Origin: Squalus acanthias
Taxonomy: Eukaryota
Length of the DNA stretch: 64,000 bases
Reading direction: 5' to 3'
NCBI GenBank assembly: GCA_030390025.1
Contig: CM059426.1
Coordinates: forward strand, 27,590,001 to 27,654,000
The translations under genes and the position numbers were made by a program. The notes under the pieces are model-generated. The model saw nothing but the letters and a program-made list of their open reading frames with translations, ran no database searches and was not told the DNA's origin. Below are positions 259 through 61,065 of the stretch, one piece after another. The first letter of the stretch is position 1. Each line of letters opens with the position of its first letter.

Positions 259-1059
259 CAATTCAGGCTTGGGCTGATAAGTGGCAGGTAACATTCGCGC
301 CACACATCTCCAACAAGCGAGGGTCTAACCATCACCCCTTGCCATTCAATGGCATTACCATCACTGAATCCCCCACCATCAATATCCTGGGGGTCACCAT
401 TGACCAGAAACTTAACTGGACCAGCCACATAAATACTGTGGCAACAAGAGCAGGTCAGAGGCTAGGTATTCTGCAGTGAGTGTCTCACCTCCTGACTCCC
501 CAAAGCCTTTCCACCATCTACAAGGCACAAGTTAGGAGTTGGATGGAATACTCTCCACTTGCCTGGATGAGTGCAGCTCCAACAACACTCAAGAAGCTCG
601 ACACTATCCAGGACAAAGCAGCCCGCTTGATTGGCACCCCATTGACCACCTTAAACATTCACTCCCTCCACTACCGGCGTACCGTGGCTGCAGTGTGTAC
701 CATCTACAAGATACACTGCAGCAACTCACCAAGGCTTCTTCAGCAGCACCTCTCAAACCCGCGACCTCTTCCACCTAGAAGGATAAGGGCAGCAGGCGCA
801 TGGGAACACCACCACCTCCAAGTTCCCCTCCAAGTCACACACCATCCTGACTTGAAAGTATATCACCGTTCCTTCATCATCGCTGGGTCAAAATCCTGGA
901 ACATCCTCCCTAACAGCACTGTGTGAGTACCTTCACCACATGGACTGCAGCAATTCAAAAAGACAGCTCACCACCACCTTCTCAAGGGCAACTAGGGATG
1001 GGCAATAACTGCTGGCCTCGCCAGCAACGCCCACATCTCATGAACGAATTTTTTAAAAA
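259..1059 (+). mobile_element. LINE-A (CR1-group, Zenon-like) 5'-truncated 3' fragment
   Basis: RT C-terminal translation YKAQVRSxMEYSPLAWMSAAPTTLKKLDTIQDKAARLIG with stops; 3' tail GGGATGGGCAATAA...CCCACATC shared with the other LINE-A copies. Confidence 0.9.
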
Positions 1060-7338: not shown

Positions 7339-9115
7339 TTTTTATATTCGTTTATGGGATCAGGGCGTCGCTGGCAATGCCAGCATTTATTGCCCATCCC
7401 TAGTTGCCCTTGAGAAGGTGGTGGTGAGCCGCCTTCTTGAACCGCTGCAGTCCGTGTGGTGATGGTACTCCCACAGTGCTGTTAGGTAGGGAGTCCCAGG
7501 ATTTTGACCCAGCGACGACGAAGGATCGGCGATATACTTCTAAGTCAGGATGGTATGTGACTTGGAGGGGAACTTGGAGGTGGTGGTGTTCCCATGCGTC
7601 TGCGGCCCTTATCCTTCTAGGTGGTAGAGGTCGCGGGTTTGGGAGGTGCTGCCGAAGAAGCCTTGGTGAGTTGCTGCAGTGCATCTTGTAGATGGTACAC
7701 ACTGCAGCTACGGTACGCCGGTGGTGGAGGGAGTGAATGTTTAAGGTAGTGGATGGGGTGCCAATCAAGCGGGCTGCTTTGTCCTGGATGGTGTCGAGCT
7801 TCTTGAGTGTTGTTGGAGCTGCACTCATCCAGGCAAGTGGAGAGTATTCCATCACACTCCTTACTTGTGCCTTGTAGATGGTGGATAGGCTTTGGGGAGT
7901 CAGGAGGTGAGACACTCGCCGCAGAATACCTAGCCTCTGACCTGCTCTTGTTGCCACAGTATTTATGTGGCTGGTCCAGTTAAGTTTCTGGTTAACGGTG
8001 ACCCCCAGGATGTTGATGGTGGGGGATTCGGCGATGGTAATGCCATTGAATGTCAAGGGGAGGTGGTTAGACTCTCGCTTGTTGGAAATAGTCATTGCTT
8101 GGCACTTCTGTGGCGCGATGTTATCTGCTACTTATCAGCCCAAGCCTGAATGTCGTCCAGGTCTTGTTGCCTGCGGGCATGGACTGCTTCATTATCTGTG
8201 GAGTTGCGAATGGCGCTGAACACTGTGCAGTCATCAGCGAACATCCCCATTTCTGACCTTATGTTGGAGGGAAGGTCATTGATGAAGCAGCTGAAGATGG
8301 TTGGGCCTAGGGCACTGCCCTGAGGAACTCCTGCAGTGATGTCCTGGGGCTGTGATGATAGACCTTCAACCACCACAACCATCTTCCTGTGTGCTATGTA
8401 TGATTCCAGCCAGTGGAGCATTTTCCCCCTGATTCCCATTGACTTCAGTTTTACTAGGGCTCCTTGATGCCACACTCAGTCAAATGCTGCCTTGATGTCA
8501 AGGGCAGTCACTCTCACCTCACCTCTGGAATTCAGCTCCTTTGTGCATGTTTGGACCAAGGCTGTAATGAGGTCGGGAGCTGAGTGGTCCTGGTGGAACC
8601 CAAACGGGGCATCAGTGAGCAGGTTATTGGTGAGTAAGTGCCGCTTGATAGCACTGTCGATGACACCTTCCATCACTTTGCTGATGATTGAGAGTAGACT
8701 GATGGGGCGGTAATTGGCCGGGTTGGATTTGTCCTGCTTTTTGTGGACAGGACATACCTGGGCAATTTTCCACATTGTCGGATAGATGCCAGTGTTGTAG
8801 CTGTACTGGAACAGCTTGGCTAGATGTGCGGCTAGTTCTGGAGCACAAGTCTTCAGCACGATAGCCGGGATGTTGTTGGGGCCCATAGCCTTTGCTGTAT
8901 CCAGTGCGCTCAGCCGTTTCTTGATATCACGTGGAGTGAATCTGAATTGGCTGAAGACTGGCTTCTGTGATGGTGGGGACCTCGGGAGTAGGCCAATATG
9001 GATCATCCACTCGGCACTTCTGGCTGAAATTGGTTGCAACGCTTCAGCCTTGTCTTTTGCACTCACATGCTGGGCTCCACCATCATTGAGGATGGGGATA
9101 TTCTTGGAGCCTCCT
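7337..9115 (-). mobile_element. LINE-A, 5'-truncated, nested in CR1
   Basis: ORFs 8476-9066, 8128-8475, 7400-8095 form one RT (NYRPISLLS, ALDIKAAFD, GVPQGS, MFADDC) broken by stops; A-rich tail near 7337-7345. Confidence 0.93.
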
Positions 9116-13868: not shown

Positions 13869-13977
13869 TACCCTGTTAGCTCCGTGGGTAAATGAATAAA
13901 GAAAGAAAAGAAGAATGAAAAGAAAAAAGGAAGAAAGAACTTCCCTGCTCTTCTTTGAAATAGTGCTGTGGAATTTG

Positions 13978-14360
13978 TTTCCAAATCCCTCCATGGCCTC
14001 ACCCCTCCCTATCTCTGTAACTTCCTCCAGCCCTACAACCCTCCAAGATCTCTGTGCTCCTCTATTTCTGGCCTTGTGGGCATTGCCGGTTTTAATTGTT
14101 CCACCACTGAAGTTCCACCGTGCCTACTGTTGCCTAGGCCCTAAGATCTGGAATTCCCGGCCTAAACCTCTGCACCTCGCGACTTCTCTCTCCTCCTTTA
14201 AGACGCTCCTTAAAACCTATCTCTTTGGCCAAGCTTTTGTACACCTGCCCTAATTTCTCCTTATGTGGCTCGGTGTCAATTTTTGTCTGATTACGCTCCT
14301 GTGAAGCGCCTTGTGACGTTTTACTACTTTAAAGGTGCTATATAAACACAAGTTGTTGTT
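13978..14360 (+). mobile_element. L2 LINE 3' end
   Basis: LGPKIWNS.P..L..ATSLSSFKTLLKTYLF; tail AAAGGTGCTATATAAA...GTTGTTGTT. Confidence 0.88.
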
Positions 14361-18207: not shown

Positions 18208-18376
18208 TGTCACTGGGTCAAAATCCTGGAACTCACTCCCTACCTTACAGCTAGTAGTAGCACCTTCACCACACAGACTGCAGAAGTTCAAGAAGATGCC
18301 CCACCACCACCTTCTCTAGGGCAATTAGAGATTGGCAATAAACTGGCCTTACCACATCCTAAGAATGAATTAAAAA
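18208..18376 (+). mobile_element. LINE-A 3' tail fragment
   Basis: GGGTCAAAATCCTGGAACTC...GGGCAATTAG...CCACATCC. Confidence 0.8.
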
Positions 18377-18439: not shown

Positions 18440-18976
18440 GCCGACTATTCCAATGCTCTCCTGGCTGACCTCCCACCTTGCACCCTCTATAAACTTGGAG
18501 CTCATCCAAAACTCTGCTGCCCGTGTCCTAATTGCACCAAGTCCCATTCACCCATCACCCCTGAGCTGGCTGACCTACATTGGCTCCCGGTCCAGCAACG
18601 ACTCAATTAAAAAAAAAATTCTCATCCTTGTTTTCAAATCCCTCCTTGACCTCACCTATCTCTCTAACCTGCTCCAAGATCTCTGTGTTCCTCCAATTCT
18701 GGCCTCTTGCCCATGCCCGATTTTCATCGCTCCACCATTGGTGGCCGTGCCTTCAGCTGTCTAGGCCCTAAACTCTGGAATTCCCTTGCTAATCCTCTCC
18801 GCCTCTCTCCTCGTTTAAAACGCTCCTTAAAACCTACCTCTTTGACCGAGCTTTTGGTCACCTATCTTAATATCTGCTTATGTGGCTTGGTGTCAAATTT
18901 TGTTTGATAAAACTCCCGCGAAGCGCCTTTGACCGTTTTACTACTTTAAAGGTGCTATATAAATGGAAGTTGTTGA
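18440..18976 (+). mobile_element. L2 LINE 3' fragment
   Basis: DYSNALLA, PITPELADLHWLPV, GGRAFSCLGPKLWNSL; L2 tail. Confidence 0.88.
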
Positions 18977-19719: not shown

Positions 19720-20863
19720 AGCAGGAGTTTCTGGTAGGTTTTTTTTTTCAGCGCAACTTGCCCGATATCGGTCAATCTAGCGCAAAAGATCGCGGAATTT
19801 AAACGCAAATCGAGGTTCCGCGATCTTTGCACTAGTTTAAAAAAAAAACAGCGCACTAGAAGCTGGCCCTGCCCCCAAAGCAAGACCGAATTAAGCGCCA
19901 TTGCTAGTTTCCGCTAATTGTATTAGATTGTGGACCTTCGAGCAGGCTCTAAAAATTAAGCTTTTTTTAGGCGCGAGGACACTAATAGGCATGTTTTAAA
20001 AGCTTTTGAACATAACTTTTTAAAAATTTACTCGGAAACTGACTACTGTACGCCAATATAACTAGCAAATGGTTCTGTATAGTTTTTTTTAGTCACTTTC
20101 GGTTATTTAAAATTGGGTTACTCACAGGTGGTGGACTAGACACTCCAATTGAAATGCTTATTTTTTGTGATAAGCCCATTTTCAGCTGTATTAGTCAAAC
20201 TTGCACCAATTTACCACTCTTAAATATAACGAGGAATATTTTTTAAAGCAAAAACATCAAAAAAATTACATTCTGAAACACTGCCCAATTGCACTGGTTC
20301 TTTTTTTTATTCGTTTACGGGATGTGGGCGTCGCTGGCAATGCCAGCATTTATTGCCCATCCCTAATTGCCCTTGAGAAGGTGGTGGTGAGCCGCCGCCT
20401 TGAACCGCTGCAGTCCGTGTGGTGAAGGTACTCCCACAGTGCTGTTAGGGAGGGAGTTCTAGGATTTTGACCCAGCGACGATAAAGGATCGGCGATATAC
20501 TTCTAAGTCAGGATGGTGTGTGACTTGGAGGGGAACCTGGAGGAGGTGGTGTGTTCCCATGCGCCTGCTGCCCTTGTCCTTCTAGGTGGAAGAGGTCGCG
20601 GGTTTGGGAGGTGCTGCCGAAGAAGCCTTGGCGAGTTGCTGCAGTTCATCTTGTAGATGGTACACACTGCAGCCACAGTACACCGGTGGTGGAGGGAGTG
20701 AATGGTTAAGGTGGTGGATGGGGTGCCAATCAAGCGGGCTGCTTTGTCCTGGTTCATGGCAGATTTTGCATTCAGCGATATGCAAATGAGTGAGTGGAAC
20801 CTTGAGGGGAAAAAACACTTCTCAAAACTAGTGCAATTTGCACCCAAAGCGGAAACTCTACCT
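19720..20863. mobile_element. Non-autonomous Harbinger-like element interrupted by LINE-A
   Basis: Imperfect ends GAGCAGGAGTTTCTG and CGGAAACTCTACCTC; CpG-rich subterminal blocks either side of the LINE. Confidence 0.45.
20301..20752 (-). mobile_element. LINE-A 3' fragment with 7-bp TSD
   Basis: QDKAARLIG to tail; CTGGTTC at 20294-20300 and 20749-20755. Confidence 0.9.
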
Positions 20864-21304: not shown

Positions 21305-23122
21305 AACGTGAATGGTGGTGGACCATTGAACAACTAACGGGAGGAGGAGGCTCCATCAATAGCCCCATCCTCAATGGTGATGCAGCCCAGCACATGAGTG
21401 CAAAGGATAAGGCTGAAGCGTTTGCAACCATCTTCAGCCAGAAGTGCCGAGTGGATGATCCATATCGGCCTACTCCTGAAGTCCCCACCATCACAGAAGC
21501 CAGTCCCAATTCGATTCACTTCACGTGATATCAAGAAACGGCTGAGTACACTGGATACAACAAAGGCTATGGGCCCCGTTAACATCCCGGCTATCGTGCT
21601 GAAGACTTGTGCTCCAGAACTAGCCGTACCTTTAGCCAAGCTGTTCCAGTACAGCTACAGCACTGGCATCTATCCGACAATGTGGAAAACTGCCCAGGTA
21701 TGTCCTGTCCACAAAAAGCAGGACAAATCCAATCTGGCCAATTACCGCCCCATCAGTCTACTCTCAATCCTCAGCAAAGTGATGGAAGGTGTCATCGGTA
21801 GTGCTGTCAAGCGGCACTTACTCACCAATAACCTGCTCACTGATGCCCAGTTTGGGTTCCGCCAAGACCACTCGGCTCCCGACCTCATTACAGCCTTGGT
21901 CCAAACATGGACAAAGGAGCTGAATTCCAGAGGTGAGGTGAGAGTGACTGCCCTTGACATCAAGGCAGCATTTGACTGAGTGTGGCATCAAGGAGCCCTA
22001 GTAAAACTGAAGTCAATGGGAATCAGGGGGAAAACTCTCCACTGGCTGGAGTCATACCTAGCACAAAGGAAGATGGTTGTGGTGATTGAAGGTCAATCAT
22101 CACAGCCCCAGGACATCGCTGCATGAGCTCCGGGCAGTGTCCTCGGCCCAACCATCTTCAGCTGCTTCATCAAGGAACTTCCCTCCAACATAAGGTCAGA
22201 AATGGGAATGTTCGCTGATGACTGCACAGTGTTCAGTGCCATTCACAACTCCTCAGCTAATGAAGCAGTCCATGCCCGCAGGCAACAAGACCTGGACGAC
22301 GTTCAGGCATGGGCTGATAAGTGGCAGGTAACATTCGCACCACAGAAATGCCAGGCAATGACTATCTCCAACAAGCGAGAGTCTAACCACCGCCCCTTGA
22401 CATTCAACGGCATTACCATCGCCGAATCCCCTGTCATCAACATCCTGGGGGGGGTCACCATTGACCAGAAACTTAACTGGACCAGCCACATAAATACTGT
22501 GGCAACAAGAGCAGGTCAGAGACTGGGTATTCTGCAGTGAGTGTCTCGCCTCCTGACTCCCTAAAGCCTTTCCACCACCTACAAGGCACAAGTCAGGAAT
22601 GTGATGGAATACTCTCCACTTGCCTGGATGAGTGCAGCTCCAACAACACTCAAGAAGCTCAACACCATCCAGGACAAAGCAGCCCGCTTGATTGGCACCC
22701 CATCCACCACCTTAAACATTCACTCCCTCCACCACCGGCGTACCGTGGCTGCAGTGTGTACCATCTACAAGATGCACTGCAGCAACTCGCCAAGGTTTCT
22801 TTGGCAGCACCTCCCAAACCCGCGACCTCTTCCACCTAGAAGGACAAGGGCAGTAGGCGCCTGGGAACACCACCACCTCCAAGTTCCCCTCCAAGTCACA
22901 TACCATCGAGACTGAGAAGTATATTGCCGTTCCTTCATCGCCGCTGGGTCAAAATCCTGGAACTCCCTCCCAAACAGCACTGTGGGAGTACCTTTACCAC
23001 ACGGACTGCAGCAGTTCAAGAAGGCGGCTCACCACCACCTTCTGAAGGGCAATTAGGGATGGGTAATAAATGCTGGCCTTGCCAGTGACGCCCACATCCA
23101 GAAAAACGATTAAAAAAAAAAA
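21305..23122 (+). mobile_element. LINE-A, 5'-truncated, whole RT region
   Basis: ORFs 21398-21979, 22202-22540, 22601-22915; poly(A) tail at about 23112-23122. Confidence 0.93.
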
Positions 23123-31754: not shown

Positions 31755-34740
31755 TCTTCTTAGGCAGTCCCTCGGAACCGAGGATGATTTGCTTCCACAC
31801 TAAAAATGAGTTCTCAGGTCACTGATGAGTCCAATCCGGGTCCTACAGTCTCTGTCACAGGTGGGGCAGACGGTGGTTGAAGGGGCGGGTGGGTGGGGTG
31901 CTTGAGTTGACGTGCGCTCCTTCCGCTGTTTGCGCTTCGCTTCCACTTGCTCCCAGCAGAGAGACTCGAGGTGTTCGGCACCTTCCCGGATGCTTCTCCT
32001 CCACTTTGTGTGGTCTTGGGCCAGGGATTCCCAGGTGTCGGTGGGGATGTTGCACTTTTTCAAGGAGGCTTTGAGGGTGTCCTTGAAACGTTTCCTCTGC
32101 CCACCTGGGGCTCTCTTGCCGTGTCAGAGCTCCGAGTAGAGCGCTTGTTTTGGGAGTCTCGTATCGGGCCTGCGGAGAATGTGGCCCATCCATCGGAGCT
32201 GATCGAACGTGGTCAGAGCTACGATGCTGGGGATGTTGGTCTGAGCGAGAACACTGACGTTGGTGCGCCTATCCTGCCAATGGATTTGCAGGATCTTGCG
32301 GAGGCAGCGTTGGTGGTACCTCTCTAGTGCTTTGAGGTGCCTGCTGTACATGGTCCATGTCTCTGAAGCATACAGGAGGGCGGGTATCAGTACGGCTCTG
32401 TAGACCATGAGCTTCGTGCCGGGTTTGAGGTCCTGGTCTTCAAACACTCTCTTCCTCAGGCGACCGAAGGCTGCACTGGCACACTGAAGGCGGTGTTGGA
32501 CTTTGTCATCGACGTCTGCCCTTGTTGACCGTAGGCTCCCGAGTTATGGAAAGTGGTCCACATTGTCCAAGGCCTTGTCATGGATTTTGATAATCGGGGG
32601 GCAGTACTGTGTGGCGGGAGCAGGTTGGTAGAGGACCTTTGTCTTATGGATGTTTAGTGTAAGGCCCATGCTCTCGTACGCTTCAGTGAAGGTGTTGACG
32701 ATGGTTTGGAGTTCGACCTCCGAGTGAGCGCAGCCGCAAGCGTCGTCTGCATACTGTAATTCGACGACAGAGGATGGGACGACCTTGGATCTGGACTGGA
32801 GACGACTGAGTTTGAACAGTTTCCCGTTTGTTCTGTAGATTAGCTCCACTCCAGCGGGGAGCTTACTGAGAGTGAGATGGAGCATTGCAGCAAGGAAGAT
32901 CGAGAAGAGCGTTGGTGCGATGACACAGCATTGCTTGACCCCGGTCCGTACGTGAACTGGGTCTGTGGTGGATCCGTTGGTCAGGATCACGGCTTGCATG
33001 TTGTCGTGAAGCAGGCGGAAGATGGTGACAAACTTTTGAGGGCAGCCGAATTTGAGGAGGACACTCCATAATCCCTCACGGTTGACGGTGTCGAAGGCCT
33101 TTGTGAGGTCAAAGAAGGCCATGTACAGCAGTTGATGCTGTTCCCTGCATTTCTCTTGTAATTGACGTGCGGTGAAGATCATGTCCATTGTGCCCCTTAG
33201 TGGGTGGAATCCGCATTGCGACTCTGGGAGGAGCTCTTCAGCCACTGCGAGAATGCGATTGAGGAGGATTCTTACGATGACTTTCCCTGTGGCAGACAGC
33301 AGGGAAACTCCTCTGTAATTACCGCAATCGAACTTGTCACGATTACGGCGTCTCTGAGATCCCCTGGCATGCTCTCCTCCTTCCAGATAAGAGAAATGAG
33401 TTCATGTATTCGTGCCAATAGTGCTTCTCCGCCATGCTTTAGTGCCTCGGCGGGGATTCCATCTGCTCCTGAGGCCTTGTTGTTCTTCAGTTGTCGGATG
33501 GCCTTTTCAGCCTCAAGCTGGGCTGGGGTTGTGCTGAGGTGGTGGCGGGTAGCATGCTGCGAGATGGAGTTGCGTACACTCACATCGAAGACAGAGTCTC
33601 GGTTAAGGAGATCTTCGAAGTGCTCCTTCCAGCGGGCACTGACTGCCTCTCTGTCCTTGATGAGTACCTCTCCGTTCTTGGCCTGCAGTGGGGTAGGATC
33701 TTGGGTGCTTGGGCCGTAGGTGATCTTGACTGCGTGAAAGAATCCACGCACGTCGTGGTTGTCAGCTAGCTGCTGGATCTCCTGCGCCTTCTCCACCCAC
33801 CATCTGTTCTTTAGGTCGCAAGTTTTTTGTTGGATCTCTGCCTTCAGGCGTCTGTAGAGCTGCTTTCTTGCTCTCGAGTTGTGTTGCTGTTTCCAGATCA
33901 GGAATGCCTTGAGCTTGTGGCTTATTAGCTCCTGGACTTCTTGGTCGTTCTCATCGAACCAGTCTTGATGTTTCCTGGTCGAGTGACCGAGCGTCCCTTC
34001 GCAGGTGCTGATTATGGAGGCCTTGAGTGCAAACCAGGCGCTGTGGACACTCTGTGTCTCTGAAACACTGGGAGGAGTCAGGTTGGTTGTGAGGCGCAGG
34101 CTGAATAGGGCTTTCTTAGCAGGGTCTTTGAGTGCTCCAGCGTTGATTTTCCTGCGGCATTGTTTCTGTTGCCACCGCTGTTTTGGGGCTACGTTGATGG
34201 AGATGACAGAGCGGATTAGGCGGTGGTCTGTCCAGCAGTCGTCAGCTCCTGTCATGGCGCTGGTGATGCGGACGTCCTTGCAGTCCCTCACTCGGACGAT
34301 GACGTAGTCCAGCAGATGCCAGTGCTTGGAGCGAGGGTGTTGCCATGAAGCCTTGTACTTGTCTCTCTGACAGAACAAGGTGTTGGTTATGACAAGGCCA
34401 TGTTCTAAGCATTTCGTCAGGAGGAGGGTGCCATTGGAGTTGGCTTTCCCTACCCCCTCTCTGCCAATCACACTACCCCAGAGGTCTGTGTTCTTTCCAA
34501 CTCTGGCGTTAAAGTCACCAAGGAGGAACAGCTTGTCGTCCGTTGGGACTTGGGACAGGGATTATTTGAGGCTGGAGTAGAATTCCTCTTTGGTCTCATC
34601 TGTGACTTCCAGTGTTGGGGCGTACGCACTGATGACCGTAGCGCACTGGTTCCGGGCTAGGGTGAGCCGAAGAGGGCGTTCGTTTATTCCGCAAGGGGAG
34701 TCTCAGACGTCCAACTAGCTCTTTTTTTATGACGAAGCCT
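31755..34740 (-). mobile_element. RTE-clade LINE, 5'-truncated within the endonuclease
   Basis: WQHPRSKHWHLLDY, DCWTDHRL, LPESQCGF, FFDLTKAFDTVNR, GVKQ, LQYADD, RLPKQALYSEL, C-terminal CPTCDR.C; AAG-type tail. Confidence 0.95.
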
Positions 34741-35811: not shown

Positions 35812-36022
35812 TCCAACAACAACTTGTATTTATATAGCGCCTTTAACGTAGTAAAAGGTCCCAAAGCCCTTCACAGGAGTATTTTAAGACAAAAAATTTG
35901 ACACCGAGCCACATAAGGATGAATTAGGGCAGGTGACCAAAAGCTTGGTCAAAGAGGTAGGTTTTAAGGAGCGCCTTAAAGGAGGAGAGAGAGGCGGAGA
36001 GGTTTAGGCAGGGAATTCCAGG
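35812..36022 (-). mobile_element. L2 3' tail
   Basis: CAACAACAACTTGTATTTATATAGCGCC start; matches 14150-14360 reversed. Confidence 0.85.
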
Positions 36023-37219
36023 GCGCACTCTGTCTCGTGCTCGCTCGGTCTGTCTGTGTCTCTGTTTTGCTCTGTCACTGTTTTTCTCACAAACATGGAC
36101 TCTCTCTCATGCTGTCTTATTTGCTCCTCTTCCTCTTTCTGTCTCGCGCTCTTGCTGTATCACACCTGCTCATCTCTCCCGTGTGTGTCGCTCCCTATCA
36201 GTGTTTCTCCTGCTGCTCTTTAATTGATCAGAAGTATGTGGCTAGCTTTCTTTTTTACTTATTTACAATGACTCAAATAGCATGAGAACGTATTGTGTCA
36301 GTGGCCAGTTTCCCTGCAGGCAGTGTACTTATGAAATGGGGCACATCTTTTTCCCCCTCCTCCAGCAGTTTGGCAAACATTTTTTTCCAGGAAGGAAAGC
36401 TGTGCCCCTTTAATTGCACCATGCCACCTGCAGGCTGGGTCCTTACTTTTATGTATATAATAAGTGTGCCCTTTAAGGGAAGGGGAACTTTGATCTTTCG
36501 GCATTCTGTGCTTGTATTGCATACGCACTTAACCAGAACAGATCATATTATAATGCTGTGGGTGGGTGTAAATCTGGTCAGTTATTTAAATACAAGTTAA
36601 GTTCCATTTAAGGAAATGTCTGCTTGTAATGAACGTCTGGGTTTAAAAGGGGTTGGTGCTGAAATTGGACCCTCCAGCCACCCCCACAATAAGCACATAC
36701 TGGAGTGAAATGCAACATTTTTTTTGTTGTCTCTACAATAAACAACTCTTGAGATCCCATAAAAAGACGGCAGATGCAGAACGCAGTCCTGGCGCCTCCA
36801 TCTTAATATTGTTCACTATCAACTAGTGCTGTAGCGGAACGTATTCTGGAAGTTTGGAACGCTCTTAAAATGTTCAATGTGGCAAGATAATACACGGTCA
36901 ATACATAGGTTTTCAAACTGGCATCCCTGGGCCCGAGTGGGTCTGCTAGGGGATCACGAAAGGCTTCCCGTGGTCATTAGATTTCTATATTTGATGACCT
37001 ATTGGCTCAGTTGCCATGCACTAATAGCGTTTTCTGTACCATTGCCACTGAATAGCTGACATTACATTTTTTTCAGAAAGAGACATTTAACTTTTGAACG
37101 TGTGGAGAGTCTCAGACATACACCTGCAGGAGATTGTCTATAATGTGTAATTTCAATAGTTATGAATGTCTCTAAATACTTACATTCCCAGAGAGTGGCC
37201 ACTATGGGATTGGAAATAC

Positions 37220-38364: not shown

Positions 38365-38830
38365 TTTTCTTTTATTCATTCTCAGGATGTGGGCATCACT
38401 AGCGAGGCTGTTTTTTTGCCCATCCCGAGTTGCCCTCAAGAAGGTGGTGGTGAGCCGCCTTCTGGAACCGCTGCAGTCCGTGTGGTGAAGGTACTCCCAC
38501 AGTGCTGTTAGGGAGGGAGTTCTAGGATTTTGCCCCAGCGACGATGAAGGCACGGCGATATACTTCTAAGTCAGGATGGTGTGTGACTTGGAGGGGAACT
38601 TGGTGGTGGTGGTGGTGGTGTGGTAGTGTTTCAATGCACCTGTTGCCTCTGTCTTCCAGATGTTGGAGGTCTCTGGTTTGGGAGGTGCTGTCGAAGAAGT
38701 CTTGGCGAGTTGCTGCAGTGCATCTTGTGGATAGAACACACTGCAGTCACAGTGCGCCGGTGGTGCAGGGAGTGGATGTTTAAGGTGGTGAATGATGGGC
38801 TGCTGATGAAGTTGTCTGCTTTGTCATGGT
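38365..38830 (-). mobile_element. LINE-A 3' fragment (more diverged)
   Basis: Collinear with 20301-20752; internal (GGT)n expansion near 38601. Confidence 0.88.
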
Positions 38831-45699: not shown

Positions 45700-46035
45700 A
45701 GACCACCTACTTCCACCTCCGTAACATCGACTGACTCCACCCCTGCCTCAGCTCATCTGCTGCTGAAACCCTCCTCCATGTCTATGTTGCCTCTAGACTT
45801 GACTATCCAATGCTCTCCTGGCCGGCCTCCCATCTTCCACCCAACATAAACTTGATCTCATCCAAAATTCTGCTGCCCGTATCTTAACTCGCACCAAGTC
45901 CCGTTCAGCCACTTGCTTACTGACCGACATTGGCTCCTGGTCCGGCAATGCCTCAATTTTTAAAATTCTCATCCTTGTTTTCAACTCCCTCCATGCCCCC
46001 CCAGCCCCATCTCTGTAACCTCCTCCAGCCCTACA
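45700..46035 (+). mobile_element. L2 RT C-terminal fragment
   Basis: Collinear with 18440-18680 and 53500-53790 reversed. Confidence 0.82.
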
Positions 46036-46602: not shown

Positions 46603-46619
46603 GTCACTAGATCGTAATC

Positions 46620-46832
46620 CCGGTCTGGCCTATATGGGACTCCAGACCCACAGTAATGTGGTTGACTCTTAACTGCCCTCTGAAATGGCCTAGCAAGCCA
46701 CTCAGTTGTAGTGCTGCGAAAATTTACAATAAGCGGCTCACTACCCCTTCACAAGGACAATTAGGGATGGGCAATAAATGCTGGCCTTGTCAGCGACGCC
46801 AACATCCCATGAATGAATAATTTTTTTTTAAA
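46620..46832 (+). mobile_element. Non-autonomous bipartite LINE-A derivative (5'UTR joined to 3' tail)
   Basis: 46620-46708 matches about 54051-54140; about 46731-46820 matches the LINE-A tail at about 23022-23110. Confidence 0.85.
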
Positions 46833-53189: not shown

Positions 53190-53790
53190 CAGCAGCTTGT
53201 ATTTATAAATTGTCCAAAGGTGCTTCACAGGAGCGTTGTCAAACAAAGTGTTGACACCGAGCCACGTGAGATATTAGGACAGGTGACAAAAAGCTTGGTC
53301 AAAGCGGTAGGTTTTAAGGAGCGTCTTAACAGAGGACAGAGAGGTAGAGAGACGGAGGTTTAGGAAGGCAGGTCCAGAGCTTAGGGCCCCGGCAGCTGAA
53401 GGCACGGCTGCCAATGGTGGAGTGATGAAAATCCGGGACGCGCAAGAGGCTAGAATTGGAGGAGCTCAGCGATCTCAGAGGGTTGTAGGAGAAGGTTAGC
53501 GAGATAGGAAGAGGTGAGGCCATGGAGGGATTTGTAAACGAGGATCAGAATTTTAAAAATGAGTCGAGGCTGGACCAGCAGCCAGAATGTGTCAGCGAGC
53601 ACAGGGGTGATGGGTGAACGGGACTTGGTGTGTGTTAGGGTACGGGCAGCAGAGTTTTGGTTGAGCTCAAGTTTACAGAGGGTGCAAGGTGAGATGTTGG
53701 CCAGGAGAGCATTGGAATAGTCGAGTCTAAAGGTAACAAAAGCGTGGATGAGGATTTCAGCAGCAGCCGAGCTGAGGCAGGGGCGTGAGA
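53190..53790 (-). mobile_element. L2 3' fragment
   Basis: AAEILIHAFVTFRLDYSNALLA, PITPVLA..WL.V. Confidence 0.88.
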
Positions 53791-53839: not shown

Positions 53840-55176
53840 CGGGAATGGTAGCATAGTGGTAATGTCACTGGGCTAGTTATCCAGAGGCTTGGACTAATGA
53901 TCCAGAGATGTGAGTTCAAATCCCACCACGGCAGCTGGGGAATTTAAATTCAGTTAATTAAATAAATCTGGAATAAGAAACTATCGGATTGTCGTAAAAA
54001 CCCATCTGGTTCACTAATGTCCTTTAGGGAAGGAAATCTGCCATCCTTACCTGGTCTGGCCTATATGTGACTCCAGACCCACAGCAATGTGGTTGACTCT
54101 TAACTGCCCTCTGAAATGGCCCTAGCAAGTCACTCAGTTGCAACAAACCGCTACGAAAAACAATAAAAAGAATGAAACTGGACGGACCACCCGACATCGA
54201 CCTCGATACCAGCTACGGCACACCCAGCCCAGTCGACCCTGCAAAGTCCTTCTCACTAACATCTGGGGACTTGTGCCAAAATTGGGAGAGCTGTCGCACA
54301 GACTAGGCAAGCAACAGCCTGACATAGTCATACTCACAGAATCAATCCTTTCAGCCAATTGTCCCAAACTCCTCCATCACCATCCCTGGGTATGTCCGGT
54401 CCCACCAGCAGGACAGACCCACCAGAGGTGGCGGCAGTGGTATACAGTCGGGAGGGAGTGGCCCTGGGAGTCCTCAACAATGACTCCAGACCCCATGAAG
54501 TCTCATTGCTTCAGGTCAAGCATGGGCAAGGAAACCTCCTGCTGATTACCACCTACCGCCCTTCCTCAGCTGATGAATCAGTACACCTCCATGTTGAACA
54601 CCACTGGGAAGAAGCACTGAGAGTAGCAAGGGCACAGAATGTACTCTGGGTGGGGGACTTCAATGTCCATCACCAAGAGTGGCTCGGTAGCACCACTACT
54701 GACCGAGCTGGCCGAGTCCTGAAGGACATAACTGCCAGTCTGGGCCTGCGACAGGTGGTGAGAGACACCAACACGAGGGGAAAACCTACTTGACCTCGTC
54801 CTCAACAATCTACCTGTCACAGATGCATCTGTCCATGACGGCATTGGCAGCAGTGACCACCGCACAGTCATTGCGGAGACGAAGTCCCGTCTTCAGACTG
54901 AGGACACACTCCATCGTGTTGTGTGGTACTACCACCGTGCTAAATGGGATAGATTCAGAACAGATCTAGCAGCTCAAAACTGGGCATCCATGAGGCACTG
55001 TGGGCCATCAGCAGCAGCAGAATTGTATTCCACCACAATCTGTAACCTCATGGCCCGGCATATCCCTCACTCAACCATTACCATCAAGCCAGGAGACCAA
55101 CCCTGGTTCAATAAGGAGTGTAGAAGAGCATGCCAGGAGCAGCGCCAGGTGTACCTAAAAATGAGATGCCAACCTG
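53840..55176 (+). mobile_element. LINE-A 5' part: tRNA-like head, 5'UTR and APE endonuclease; resumes at 58604
   Basis: A box TAGCATAGTGG 53849-53859, B box GAGTTCAAATCC 53912-53923; VLLTNIWGL, PDIVILTES, YRP, VGDFNVHH, LDLVL, GSSDH. Confidence 0.9.
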
Positions 55177-55191
55177 TTTTGTGTTTTATTT

Positions 55192-55571
55192 AATTCTGGA
55201 GGGGAAGGGTGAACAGCCAGTTGTCGTGGTGCATATAGGTACCAACGACATAGGTAAAAAACGGGATGAGGTCCTAAAAGCTGAATATATGGAGTTAGGA
55301 GGTAAATTTAAAAAATAGGACCTCAAAGGTAGTAATCTCAGGACTGCTACCAGTGCCACGTACTAGTCAGAGTAGAAATAGAAGGATATTTCAGATGAAT
55401 ACGTGGCTAGAAGAATGGTGCAAGGGGGAGGGATTCAAATTCCTGGGACATTGGAACTGGTTCTGGGGGAGATGGGACCAGTACAAACTGGACAGTTTGC
55501 ACCTGGGCAGGGCCGGGACCGATGTCCTAGGGGGAGTGTTTGCTAGTGCTGTTGGGGAGGGTTTAAACTAA
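55192..55571 (+). pseudogene. CR1 ORF1 SGNH/GDSL esterase-like domain
   Basis: VVVVHIGTNDIG, VVISGLLPVP, DSLHL (DxxH). Confidence 0.88.
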
Positions 55572-55572
55572 A

Positions 55573-58518
55573 ATGGCAGGGGGTTGCGAACCTGTGCAGG
55601 GAGACAGAGGAAAGGGAAGCAAGGATAGAAGCAAAAGACAGAAGGAGAAAAGCAAAAGTGGAAGTCAGAGAAATCAAGGGTGTAAATCAAACATGGCCAC
55701 AGTAAATAATAATTCTAAAAGGTCTAAGAGTGTTAAAAAAACAAGCCTGAAAGCTGTGTGTCTTAATGCGAGGAGCATTCGTAATAAGGTGGATGAATTA
55801 GCTGCGCAAATAGATGTAAACGGATATGATATAATTGGGATTACGGAGACAGGGCTCCAGGGTGACCAAGGCTGGGAATTCAACATCCAGGGGTATTCAA
55901 TATTCAGGAAGGACAGGCAAAAAGGAAAAGGAGGTGGGGTAGCATTGCTGGTTAAAGAGGAGATTAACACAATAGTAAGGAAGGATATTAGCTCTGATGA
56001 TGTGGAATCTGTATGGGTAGAGCTGAGAAATACCAAGGGGCAGAAAACGTTAGTGGGAGTTGTATACAGACCCCCAAACAGTAATGCTGAGGTTGGGGAT
56101 GGCATTAAATGGGAAATTAGAGACTCGTACAATAAGGGCACAGCAGTTATCATGGGTGACTTTAATCTACATATAGATTGGGCTAACCAAATTAGTAACA
56201 ATACTGTGGAGGAGGAATTCCTAGAGTGTATACGGGATGTTTTCCTGGACCAATATGTCGAGGAACCAACTAGAGATCAGGCCATCTTAGACTGGGTATT
56301 ATGTAATGAGAAAGGATTAATTAGCAATCTTGTGCGAGGCCCCTTGGGGAGGAGCGATCATAATATGATAGAATTCCTCATTAAGATGGAGAGTGAAGTA
56401 GTTGACTCAGAGACTTGGGTCCTGAATTTAAATAAAGGAAACTACGATGGTATGAGGCGCGAGTTGGCTAGGATGGATTAGGGAATGTTACTTAAAGGGC
56501 TGACGATGGATAGGCAATGGCAAACATTTAAAGATCGCATGGGTGAACTACAGAATTTGTTCATCGCTGTTTGGCATAAAAATAAAACAAAAGCGGTGAC
56601 TCAACCATGGCTAACAAGGGAAATTAGGGATAGCATAAGATCCAAGGAGAGGACATATAAATTGGCCAGAAAAAGCAGCAAACCTGAGAATTGGGAGCAG
56701 TTTAGGATTCAGCAAAGGAGGACAAAGGGATTAATTAAGAGGGGGAAAATAGAATATGAGAGTAAAATTGCAGGGAACATAAAAACTGACTGTAAAAGCT
56801 TCTATAGATATGTGAAGAGAAAAAGATTGGTGAAGTCAAGCGTAGGTCCCTTGCAGTCAGAATCAGGGGAATTTATAATGGGGAACAAAGAAATGGCAGA
56901 CCAATTAAATACATACTTTGGTTCTGTCTTCACAAAGGAGGACACAAATAACCTCCCAGAGATGTCGGGGAACATAGGGTCTAATGAGAGGGAGGAATTG
57001 AATGAAATCAGTATTTGTAGGGAAATGGTGTTAGGGAAATTGATGGGATTGAAGGCCGATAAATCCCCAGGGCCTGATAATCTGCATCCTAGGGTACTTA
57101 AGGAAGTGGCCCTAGAAATAGTAGATGCATTGCTGGTCATCTTCCAAAATTCTATAGACTCTGGAACAGTTCCCATGGATTGGAGGGTAGCTAATGTAAC
57201 CCCACTATTCAAAAAAGGTGGTAGAGAGAAAACGGGGAATTATAGACTGACATCGGTAGTGGGGAAAATGCTAGAGTCCATTATAAAAGATGTAATAGCA
57301 GAGCACTTGGAAAACAGTGACAGGATTGGACAAAGTCAACATGGATTTACAAAAGGTAAATCATGCTTGACTAATCTACTGGAATTTTTTGAGGATGTAA
57401 CTGGTAGAATAGATAAGGGAGAACCAGTGGATGTGGTGTATTTGGACTTTCCGAAGGCTTTCGATAAGGTCCCGCATAAGAGATTAGCGTGCAAAGTTAA
57501 AGCACATGGGATTGGGGGTAAGGTACTGACTTGGATAGAAAACTGGTTGGCAGACAGGAAGCAAAGAATTGGAATAAACGGGTCTTTTTCCGAGTGGCAG
57601 GCAGTGACGAGTGGGGTACCGCAGGGATCGGTGCTAGTTATTCACTATATATTAATGATCTAGATGAGAGAACTAGATGTAATATCTCCAGTTTGCAGGC
57701 AACACAAAGCTGAGTGGGTGTGTGTGCTGTGAGGAGGATGCAGAGAAACTCCAGTATGATTTGGACAGGTTGGGTGATTGGGCAGATGCAGTATAATGTG
57801 GATAAATGCGAGGTTATCCACTTTGGTGGCAAAAACAGGAAGGCAGATTATTATCTGAACGGCAAAAGATTGAGAAAAGGGGAAGTGCAATGAGACCTGA
57901 GTGTCCTTGTGCACCAGTCGCTGAAGGTAAGCATGCAGGTGCAGCAGGCGGTTAAGAAGGCAAATGGTATGTTGGCCTTCATAGCGAGAGGATTCGAGTA
58001 CAGGAGCAAGGAGGTCTTGCTGCAGTTGTACAGGGCCTTGGTGAGACCACACCTTGAGTATTGTGTGCAGTTTTGGTCGCCTTATCTGAGGAAAGATGTT
58101 CTTGCCATGGAGGGAGTGCAGCGAAGATTTACCAGACTGATACCTGGGATGGCAGGAATGACGTATGAGGAGAGATTGGGTCGATTAGGCTTGTATTCGC
58201 TAGAGTTTAGAAGAATGAGAGGGGATCTCATTGAAACTTAAAATTCTAACAGGACTAGACAGACTGGATGCAGGAAGGATGTTCCCGATGGCAGGGGAGT
58301 CCAGAACCAGGGGTCACAGTCTAAGGATAAGGGGTAAGCCATTTAGGACTGAGATGAGGAGGAATTTCTTCACCCAGAGAGTGGTGAACCTGTGGAATTC
58401 TCTACCACAGAAGACAGTTGAGTCCAATTCATTAAATATATTCAAGAAGGAGTTAGATATATTTCTTAAGGCTAAGGGGATCAAGGGATATGGGGAGAAA
58501 GCAGGGACAGGGTACTGA
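55573..58518 (+). pseudogene. CR1 ORF2 APE endonuclease-reverse transcriptase
   Basis: LNARSIRNK, GITET, YRPP, MGDFN, LGRSDH; KSPGPD, QHGF, LDFPKAFDKVPH, GVPQGSVL; stop at 56479-56481 and later frameshifts. Confidence 0.94.
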
Positions 58519-58603
58519 ATTTGGATGATCAGCCATGATCGCATTGAATGGCGGAGCAGGCTCGAGGGGCCGAATGGCCTACTCCTGCTCCTATCTTCTA
58601 TGT

Positions 58604-59505
58604 TTCCACGTGATATCAAGAAACGGCTGAGCGCACTGGATACAGCAAAGGCTATGGGCCCCGACAACATGCCGGCTATCGTGCTGAAGACTTGTGCTTC
58701 AGAACTAGCTGCACCTCTAGCCAAGCTGTTCCAGTACAGCTACAACACTTGCATCTATCCGACAATGTGGAAAACTGCCCAGGTATGACCTGTCCAGAAA
58801 AAGCAGGACAAATCCAATCCGGCCAATTACTGCCCCATCAGTCTTCTCTCAATCATCAGCAAAGTGATGGAAGGTGTCATCGACAGTGCTATCAAGCAGC
58901 ACTTACTCACCAATAACCTGCTCACTGATGCCCAGTTTGGGTTCCGCCAAGATCACTTGGCTCCAGACCTCATTACAGCCTTGGTCCAAACATGGACAAA
59001 GGAGCTGAATTCCAGAGGTGAGGTGAGAGTGACTGCCCTTGACATCAAGGCAGCATTTGACCAAGCGTGGCATCAAGGAGCCCTAGTAAAACTGAAGTCA
59101 ATGGGAATCGGGGAAAACGCTCCATTGGCTGGAGTCATACCTAGCACAAAGGAAGATGGTTGTGGTGATTGAAGGTCAATCATCACAGCCCCAGGACATC
59201 GCTGCAGGAGTTCCTCAGGGCAGTGTCCTAGGCCCAACCATCTTCAGCTGCTTCATCAATGACCTTCCCTCTAACATAAGGTCAGAAATGGGGATGTTCG
59301 CTGATGACTGCACAGTGTTCAGCGCCATTCACAACTCCTCAGATAATGAAGCAGTCCATGCCCGCATGCAACAAGACCTGGATGACGTTCAAGCTTGAGC
59401 TGATAAGCGGCAGGTAACATTCGTGCCACAGGAGTGCCAGGCAATGACTATCTCCAACAAGCAAGAGTCTAACCACCTCCCCTTGACATTCAACGGCATT
59501 ACCAT
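58604..59505 (+). mobile_element. LINE-A RT segment (continuation of the 53840 copy), 3'-truncated
   Basis: PRDIKKRLSALDTAKAMGPD, ALDIKAAFD, GVPQGSVLGP, MFADDC. Confidence 0.9.
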
Positions 59506-59514
59506 ACTGAAATT

Positions 59515-59665
59515 GCTAGTTTTTTTTTAAGTAAGGTTATTAAGGGATATAAATGACAAAGGCAGGTAAATGGAGTTGAGGTACAGATAAGCCATGATCT
59601 AATTGCATGGCAGGTCACGAACAGGCTCGAGGGACTGAATGGCCTACTCCTGTTCCTATGTAATT
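59515..59665 (+). mobile_element. CR1 3' tail fragment
   Basis: GGAGTTGAGG...GCCATGATCT...GAATGGCCTACTCCTGTTCCTATG. Confidence 0.8.
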
Positions 59666-60655: not shown

Positions 60656-60819
60656 AGTCCCCTGTTCCCAGGAGTATGTGCTCAGGAATCAGCCCGAATC
60701 TTGAATCAAGTAACAGTAATGGAGTAACAATTGAGTTAGTGGGTCTTTTTGGGTGAAAGGGGCACACTTCTTTTCTGGGGTAAGTAACTGGGGCCTGGCC
60801 AATTCCCGATTCTCATCGC

Positions 60820-61065
60820 TCGTCCATTGCCGGCCGTGCTTTCAGCTGCCTTGACCCTAAACTCTGGAATTTTCCTTCTCAAACCTCTCTACCTCCCTCT
60901 CTCCATTTAAGACAGTCTTTAAAACCTACTTCTAAGCAAGCTTTTGGTCACCTCCTAATATCTCTTTGTGGCTCAGTGTTGAACTTTGTTTGAGAACGCT
61001 CCTGTAACCCGCCGCGGGATGTTTTACTCGGTTAAAGGTGGACTATTAATGCAGGTTGTTGTTGT
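60820..61065 (+). mobile_element. L2 3' tail
   Basis: Collinear with 18730-18976; GTTGTTGTTG end. Confidence 0.82.

Follow-up and report, generated by a model that had tools for sequence, protein, structure and literature searches.

A Zenon retrotransposon family of sharks with a tRNA-type 5' head, a single reading frame lacking an early AUG, and SINE-like deletion derivatives

The interrupted Zenon copy

The sequence analysed here, referred to as the window, is a stretch of 64,000 nucleotides (nt) from Squalus acanthias. Between positions 53840 and 59505 it contains a dead copy of Zenon, a long interspersed nuclear element (LINE) belonging to an abundant shark family, and this copy has been split by the insertion of a 3.4-kb CR1 LINE. 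The segments 53841-55176 and 58605-59505 are two pieces of a single retrotransposon copy, representing family positions 1-1371 and 1712-2614 and sharing 93% and 97% identity, respectively, with the family majority sequence. An earlier, sequence-only reading had taken the whole interval as one LINE. Both of its ends do belong to one Zenon copy, but the part between them (55177-58604), which makes up more than half of the interval, is the inserted CR1 and belongs to another family. About 340 nt of Zenon are gone at the insertion point and the last ~690 nt, comprising the 3' end, are absent too. The copy is also frameshifted, and it has a private 27-nt deletion in the spacer of its 5' untranslated region (UTR). 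The window holds six further Zenon-family fragments and one short derivative (Table 1), and the search for other copies covered the 3.7 Gb of the genome. None of 11 long copies showed a visible target-site duplication.

The sequence-only reading had described the element as a Zenon-like LINE with one open reading frame (ORF), and had cautioned that the family might already be catalogued. Both points were well founded. The first 400 nt of the family are a near letter-for-letter match to SquAca_Zenon-1, listed in the supplement of Stuart et al. 2026 (PMC13343379) as a 3.3-kb element with APE endonuclease and reverse transcriptase (RT), no ORF1 and a poly-A tail. In the parts of that source available to us, Zenon is reported from five elasmobranchs, always without ORF1 and with a poly-A tail. 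The family is thus already catalogued as an elasmobranch Zenon, and all Zenons are known to be devoid of ORF1.

Table 1. Zenon-related features of the window and the CR1 insertion (window coordinates)
Feature	Position	Strand	Remarks
tRNA-derived head, element 5' end (GGGAAYGG)	53841..53927	+	Rfam tRNA match 53848-53927; sharp 5' start common to copies
Pol III A-box match (TRGCNNARYGG), here TAGCATAGTGG	53849..53859	+	kept in the consensus rows of five species, by eye
Pol III B-box match	53912..53923	+	GGTTCGAATCC in the consensus rows of three other species
Variable AT-rich spacer	53928..53998	+	27 nt missing here; conservation 0.865, the lowest in the 5' region
Conserved structured 5' UTR core, candidate translation-initiation element	53999..54156	+	near-invariant in sharks and ray
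Long-range helix	54005..54077	+	strands 54005-54009 and 54073-54077; one compensatory change, U-A in young and A-U in old subfamily
Anticodon-stem-loop-like hairpin	54111..54137	+	7-nt loop CUAGCAA at 54122-54128; one extra C here
GCUA, predicted loop partner	54150..54153	+	GCU in endonuclease frame; marks predicted start region; no covariation
Single ORF, 5' part	54150..55176	+	basic N-terminal peptide, APE endonuclease, linker; frameshifted; first in-frame ATG 54990
CR1 LINE insertion, not part of the element	55177..58604	+	
RT-coding part of the same Zenon copy	58605..59505	+	family positions 1712-2614; 3' end absent
SINE-like derivative, 5'-truncated	46619..46825	+	core fused directly to Zenon 3' tail
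5'-truncated Zenon-family copy with 3' tail	21307..23112	+	
5'-truncated Zenon-family copy with 3' tail	7345..9115	-	
5'-truncated Zenon-family copy	262..1049	+	
Zenon-family 3' fragment	20308..20752	-	

The tRNA-type head and its junction with the reading frame

The element begins with a sequence that resembles a tRNA. The Rfam tRNA model scores 23.5 bits against it (E 0.022), which is under the gathering score, and 26 bits in another copy, L046; ARAGORN called no tRNA gene in the head. The A and B boxes of an RNA polymerase III (Pol III) promoter lie where the sequence-only reading had placed them (Table 1). In family coordinates they start at positions 9 and 74, which is a workable spacing for a type 2 promoter, and in most full copies the element starts 8 nt before the A box. 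The head leads straight into the APE endonuclease frame after ~310 nt without an intervening ORF1, as had been claimed. In the young family the anticodon arm of the head is tandemly duplicated (~21 nt; 53865-53911, family 27-64) and in the older subfamily it is not; the boxes are unchanged by this.

Recurrence of the junction between head and ORF in independent copies had been set beforehand as the test of whether the two belong together. The 40 top matches to the element's 5' part have one junction in common and start sharply at the 5' end, and 30 of 30 loci retrieved with a query spanning head and junction continue into LINE sequence. This query is biased, and two samples were therefore drawn in chromosome order from the exact genome matches to a 20-mer at the start of the endonuclease (4,406 matches) and to a 21-mer at the B box (8,596 matches). 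At the endonuclease start the head is present from position 1-5 in 20 of 30 loci, and the remaining 10 are each truncated at a different point. The 30 B-box loci comprise 10 that run on into the ORF, 15 short elements ending in the LINE tail and five with head and core in which no tail was found; the core is present in every one. Three loci in these samples (L325-L327) possibly represent one local duplication. The head is a family-wide part of the element.

The same arrangement extends to other elasmobranchs. The first 400 nt of the published consensus rows were compared by eye, and all seven elasmobranch Zenon rows, from five species of sharks and ray, open with the head. The A box fits in the five species and the B box is perfect in three, that of the ray being one base short, and the rows differ by insertions and deletions between the boxes while the boxes themselves are kept. 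In the corresponding part of two hagfish rows and one coelacanth row the head is not visibly at the start. More distant relatives were found in metagenomes; they are 22-49% identical and not all are shown to be Zenons. A and B boxes together were found upstream of the ORF in none of the 25 of these that have upstream DNA, and 18 of the 80 metagenome relatives gave no tRNA match with Rfam.

The reading frame and its start

Across 52 aligned segments the majority sequence contains one frame of 972 codons, running from position 330, in which Pfam recognises Exo_endo_phos and RVT_1 domains and no ORF1. The nearest named protein matching over the full domains is from a moth (33%). Named close matches are limited to two sharks, and gene models P0002, P0013 and P0022 hold pieces of the Zenon ORF at 78-87% identity; such shark gene models are probably annotation artefacts or exonised copies.

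It had been noted that no in-frame ATG precedes the endonuclease in this copy, and this is true of the family as a whole. The first methionine codon of the majority sequence lies ~250 codons after the endonuclease start, that is, beyond the endonuclease. In the window copy the ATG at 54172 falls in the +1 frame, as stated, and the first in-frame ATG is at 54990. Just upstream of the ORF an in-frame TAA is present in 41 of 49 copies. An in-frame ATG is present in 21 of the 25 metagenome relatives with upstream DNA.

In spite of the missing AUG the endonuclease frame was under purifying selection. Non-CpG changes were counted over endonuclease codons 4-289 in 212 alignments of young copies; changes shared among many copies were synonymous in 11 cases and nonsynonymous in six, and for private changes the figures were 159 and 472 (Fisher P = 0.0008). 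The synonymous excess among shared changes indicates that the active ancestors made the endonuclease domain.

A GCT triplet near the end of the UTR has a constant relationship to this frame. In 40 of 43 copies it stands 27 or 30 nt away from the ORF, and in 41 of the 43 it is in frame; in the independent endonuclease-start sample it is in frame in 16 of 20. It is also in frame in the rows of white shark, catshark, whale shark and ray, the whale-shark row having one base fewer just upstream of the GCU and yet remaining in frame. Taken together, the upstream TAA and the in-frame GCU confine the start to a few codons around the GCU, and translation very probably begins in a non-canonical way.

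The conserved core

Between the variable spacer and the ORF lies a 155-nt core (family positions 185-340, window 53999-54156) that is nearly invariant in the rows of five species, while its neighbours vary. The older subfamily in the genome shows about eight core differences. Two of these are the two ends of one predicted pair. Of 99 readable copies, 73 have U-A at this pair and 18 have A-U (31 and 8 among 42 chosen copies), and in contigs X15, from another organism, A-U predominates. This compensatory change is one event. A second core helix has an A-U to G-C change in the whale-shark row (by eye). Across the 42 chosen copies 93% of cells in the predicted structure are paired, and two-sided cells number 12 against 6.5 in shuffles, an excess that relatedness alone can explain.

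The core ends in a hairpin whose stem has five pairs in the old subfamily and in the ray. Its seven-base loop, CU-AGC-AA, has the shape of an anticodon loop, and the complementary GCUA follows twelve bases past the stem. Pairing between loop and GCUA is possible in 89% of cells and shows no covariation. [quoted passage not shown] The anticodon arm of the head (loop CUAGUAA, 53869-53883) and the hairpin before the ORF (CUAGCAA, 54117-54132) have 12 of 15 bases in common in the family majority, and two of the differences are complementary; on this resemblance, the hairpin is possibly a copied tRNA arm.

Several other candidates were tried. A ribozyme like that of hepatitis delta virus was discarded because the stretch that it requires falls in the variable spacer (by eye), and no plausible hairpin surrounds an alternative GGUU/AACC pairing that would make GCU the first codon. 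Seven viral contigs carried the pattern of hairpin plus GCTA, but the covariance model of the core scored only an 18-nt piece in two of them (E 0.78), which we take to be chance. This model found no match in the 80 metagenome relatives nor in two RTE loci, and protein and pattern searches of viral and genome contig collections returned no relatives.

Runs of T

The sequence-only reading had found no run of four T (T4) on the sense strand of five named segments. That observation was reproduced, and the adjacent CR1 has four such runs. Since all five segments belong to a single family, they count as one observation and not five. Over 3.3 kb, T4 is absent from the majority sequence and runs of three T (T3) number seven. 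Observed T3 were 5 against the 11.2 expected from synonymous-codon permutation (P = 0.005, one of eight tests), and the absence of T4 had P = 0.014 in base shuffles. ORFs of at least 700 codons were present at 35 of the 80 metagenome loci, and all 35 carry T4 runs, from 2 to 46 each, ten of them having T at or below 22.5%. The Zenon family is the lowest of these 36 ORFs in T3 per kb, in phenylalanine content and in z-score. In open stretches of actual copies from the same genome, the ratio of observed to expected T4 stood at 0.17 in Zenon (82 stretches that overlap and are related), at 0.74 in CR1 and at 1.22 in the remaining LINEs. When a distinct old LINE subfamily was sought, the search returned young copies only. 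The scarcity of T runs matches what read-through by Pol III would predict, and is not proof of it.

An RTE LINE family (32544-34700, minus strand, and loci L371-L390) served as a control for T runs. It is 3.5 kb long, with a single 1085-codon frame that has an ATG and with ragged 5' ends, and its 5' UTR gave no Rfam match.

Short derivatives

Many copies of the head do not belong to LINEs but to elements of ~425 nt in which family positions 1 to 318-354 are fused to the last 50-160 nt, so that tRNA head, core and Zenon tail are brought together. The breakpoints are many and varied, several of them fall inside sequence found only in the LINE, and these recur in several copies. The same join of head-core to tail is found as loose ends in contigs of other organisms. 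Head, non-coding body, LINE tail and high copy number (15 of 30 B-box loci) are the structure of a tRNA-derived short interspersed nuclear element (SINE). The short elements are SINEs by structure, born from the LINE by repeated internal deletion. An origin by splicing was rejected, because neither of the two most frequent junctions is of the GT-AG type (by eye). As the core is kept in all derivatives, one might speculate that it has a role beyond coding, perhaps in ribosome binding. Large internal deletions are also seen in many LINE copies (L043, L048, L049, L056, L068, L074, L075, L311 and L365), forming a continuum toward the SINE-like forms.

Other repeats in the window

Older Zenon fragments of 70-85% identity lie at 38385-38829 (minus strand) and 18209-18354 (plus strand), and also at loci L172, L220 and L269; mismatches in the older fragments are skewed to third codon positions (489 against 347 and 311). 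The inserted CR1 is 5'-truncated, and its start resembles what we take to be the remnant of an esterase-type ORF1. An inverted CR1 3' fragment (59506-59659) adjoins the broken end of Zenon. The repeat directly upstream of the head belongs to another interspersed family, found at 13975-14358, 18442-18975, 35814-36024, 45740-46026, 53206-53783 and 60795-61064.

Discussion

The features described here suggest a LINE that may be transcribed by Pol III and translated without an AUG from a structure mimicking a tRNA. As a whole we give this explanation a probability of about 50%, and its parts are not equally secure. TFIIIC and Pol III would start at +1 from the tRNA-type head and read through the 3.3 kb, since no T4 terminator is met, with termination presumably in flanking DNA as for SINEs. 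Transcription of Zenon by Pol III is, to judge from these sequence features, somewhat favoured. In the RNA, the hairpin loop CU-AGC-AA is predicted to pair with the in-frame GCUA, giving a mimic of tRNA plus codon like domain 3 of those internal ribosome entry sites (IRESs) classed as type 6, and decoding would begin at the codon after GCU (ACG, ACA or AAA). This is the least certain step, and that core and hairpin work as a tRNA-mimic IRES is a tentative model which invites more doubt than belief. Target-primed reverse transcription of the RNA by the protein would then follow, beginning at the 3' tail, as is established for LINEs. With a promoter inside the element, a ready-made SINE would result from any internal deletion sparing head, core and tail, and such deletions have occurred many times over.

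A number of results weigh against this explanation. A length of 3.3 kb would be unusual for Pol III, whose weak processivity has been tied to the short length of SINEs (Kojima 2024). The absence of T4, on which the sequence-only reading had leaned, is not significant when codons are permuted (0 against 1.85 expected, P = 0.11) or dinucleotides shuffled (P = 0.22), and what stands of that argument is the T3 deficit and the rarity of T runs relative to all 35 long relatives. The caution that the RTE of the window also has few T runs was apt. Its majority sequence (20 copies), which has an ATG and no A or B box, has a single run of four or more T in 3.5 kb (P = 0.14), with T3 at expectation. The AATAAA lying ~45 nt before the poly-A tail is compatible with RNA polymerase II (Pol II). 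With regard to the core, it folds no better than shuffles (z -1.26, pseudoknots excluded), and the outer pair of the hairpin is A-C in most young copies (99 AC, 16 GC, 6 AT and 6 GT of 132, the search pattern inflating G). The pairing of loop and GCUA is 3-4 bp long, is without compensatory change, and has its U-A pair broken in 12 of 42 copies. Rfam gave no IRES match to E 10, and the loop motifs L1.1a/L1.1b and SLIV/SLV of type 6 IRESs are not in register (by eye). For these reasons the core may work like a type 6 IRES, and we do not say that it is one. Finally, the three SquAca consensus rows are out of frame at the GCT, in an A-rich stretch, although genomic copies are in frame there.

Of the other explanations the most substantial, which we nevertheless regard as rather unlikely, is that the head is a captured SINE 5' end within an internal promoter for Pol II, or for both polymerases, and that capped, polyadenylated RNA is translated from a leaky non-AUG start, the few T runs simply following from a T-poor strand. 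LINEs normally have internal promoters for Pol II. The poly-A tail with its nearby AATAAA, the non-significant T4 test and the nearly T4-free RTE control would all be accommodated. However, the start 8 nt before the A box, seen in most full copies, is that of tRNA-type promoters, both boxes have been kept in sharks and ray while the DNA between them changed, and the T3 deficit exceeds codon expectation and that of all 35 relatives. In addition, the AATAAA at the 3' end falls inside a predicted stem-loop of the tail.

A second explanation concerns translation only and would hold with or without Pol III. Initiation would occur at the AUG of the hairpin (AUG-GCC-UAG-CAA), followed by readthrough of the UAG or by reinitiation past this ORF of two codons, the hairpin serving as a recoding signal rather than as a tRNA mimic. 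This ATG is in frame and is found in the rows of all five species, three of which lack a second stop ahead of the ORF. A UAG with CAA after it is a leaky context, and TAG is replaced by CAG in 14 of 50 copies. Against this, the TAA that follows in 41 of 49 copies is a second in-frame stop, the whale-shark row is out of frame between ATG and ORF, and in the older subfamily and contigs X15 the ATG is replaced by a GTG that improves the stem. We consider it improbable. Initiation at a +1-frame AUG (in this copy the one at 54088 or at 54172) with a subsequent -1 frameshift into the endonuclease frame is more improbable still. Although AATGAA is present in the rows of five species, more than half of copies have AAT AAA (the G variant being found in 37 of 88), the +1 frame has no conserved slippery heptamer (by eye), and the shared changes agree with the endonuclease frame. 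That a SINE and a truncated LINE lie side by side at this locus by chance is already refuted, for although head-bearing short elements outnumber head-bearing LINEs in the B-box sample (15 against 10 of 30), the junction recurs in dozens of unlinked copies and five species and the breakpoints of the short elements are many and often fall within sequence peculiar to the LINE. An ancient SINE could first have donated the head.

Comparison with known elements helps to define what is unusual about this family. A lepidopteran Zenon, as described in the available parts of PMC6740152, is likewise a 3.3-kb element with a single ORF that has repeatedly yielded internally deleted elements composed of 5' and 3' ends. 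The Persaeus SIDE of the same paper is said there to be without tRNA homology and without a Pol III promoter, whereas the shark deletion products keep the tRNA head. Precedent for a LINE bearing tRNA-like sequence is found in RTE-1_DAn and elements related to it, mentioned in passing in the sections available of Kojima 2018 (PMC5786205). The bipartite SINEs of that paper also consist of a tRNA head and the 5' and 3' parts of a LINE, but there the head was added to a deleted LINE, the donors named being RTE and Vingi, while here the autonomous LINE itself bears the head. SacSINE1 and the CmiSINEs are shark SINEs with tRNA heads too, but judging by their description in the accessible text of PMC5499810 they have Deu or CORE bodies and an L2 tail, unlike the short elements here with core and Zenon tail.

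On the translational side, the portions at hand of three papers (PMC10275262, PMC12221177 and bioRxiv 2024.04.17.590008) describe the type 6 IRESs, those of the dicistrovirus intergenic region (IGR), as structured RNAs 120-190 nt long and ending in a mimic of anticodon loop and codon immediately ahead of a first codon that is not AUG. The layout of the shark core is alike. It differs in showing no sequence likeness to them, in having a shorter predicted codon helix, and in its loop motifs being out of place. According to the same partial sources, subtype 6f often has ACA as its first codon. Retroelements are unmentioned in the portions of the two papers searched for them, and Luke et al. 2013 (PMC3894237, in part) treat IGR-type IRESs in non-LTR elements as a mere possibility.

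The words "tRNA", "promoter" and "start codon" are absent from the main text of PMC13343379 and "trna" from its supplement, and the tRNA head, the missing AUG, the core and the derivatives go unremarked there. In the literature searched, outside Repbase, Dfam and closed papers, we came across no account of a Zenon with a tRNA head or driven by Pol III, nor of a Pol III-type head combined with an AUG-less start in any protein-coding retrotransposon. What is new here is the conserved core with its anticodon-like hairpin, the finding of a tRNA head, no AUG and few T runs on a catalogued Zenon family, and the recognition of the short elements as deletions of the LINE. In its fullest form the proposal would be that an autonomous vertebrate LINE has left the cap-dependent route by means of a Pol III head and an AUG-less pseudoknot IRES, has kept both since the split of sharks and rays, and has spawned SINEs along the way. 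The element would then be a cellular-genome counterpart of the dicistrovirus IGR IRES, to all appearance built independently from tRNA-like parts; we regard a claim of this extent as unlikely.

LINEs are generally regarded as Pol II units and SINEs as their Pol III passengers, and a LINE with a conserved tRNA promoter blurs this division. It also offers a direct route to the birth of SINEs, by deletion within a tRNA-headed LINE, of which there are many instances here. This raises the question of how an uncapped RNA without an AUG could yield an enzyme of 970 residues. If the anticodon-mimic model is true, it would bear on the origin of factor-independent IRESs, which the type 6 IRES papers, in the portions consulted, call unknown.

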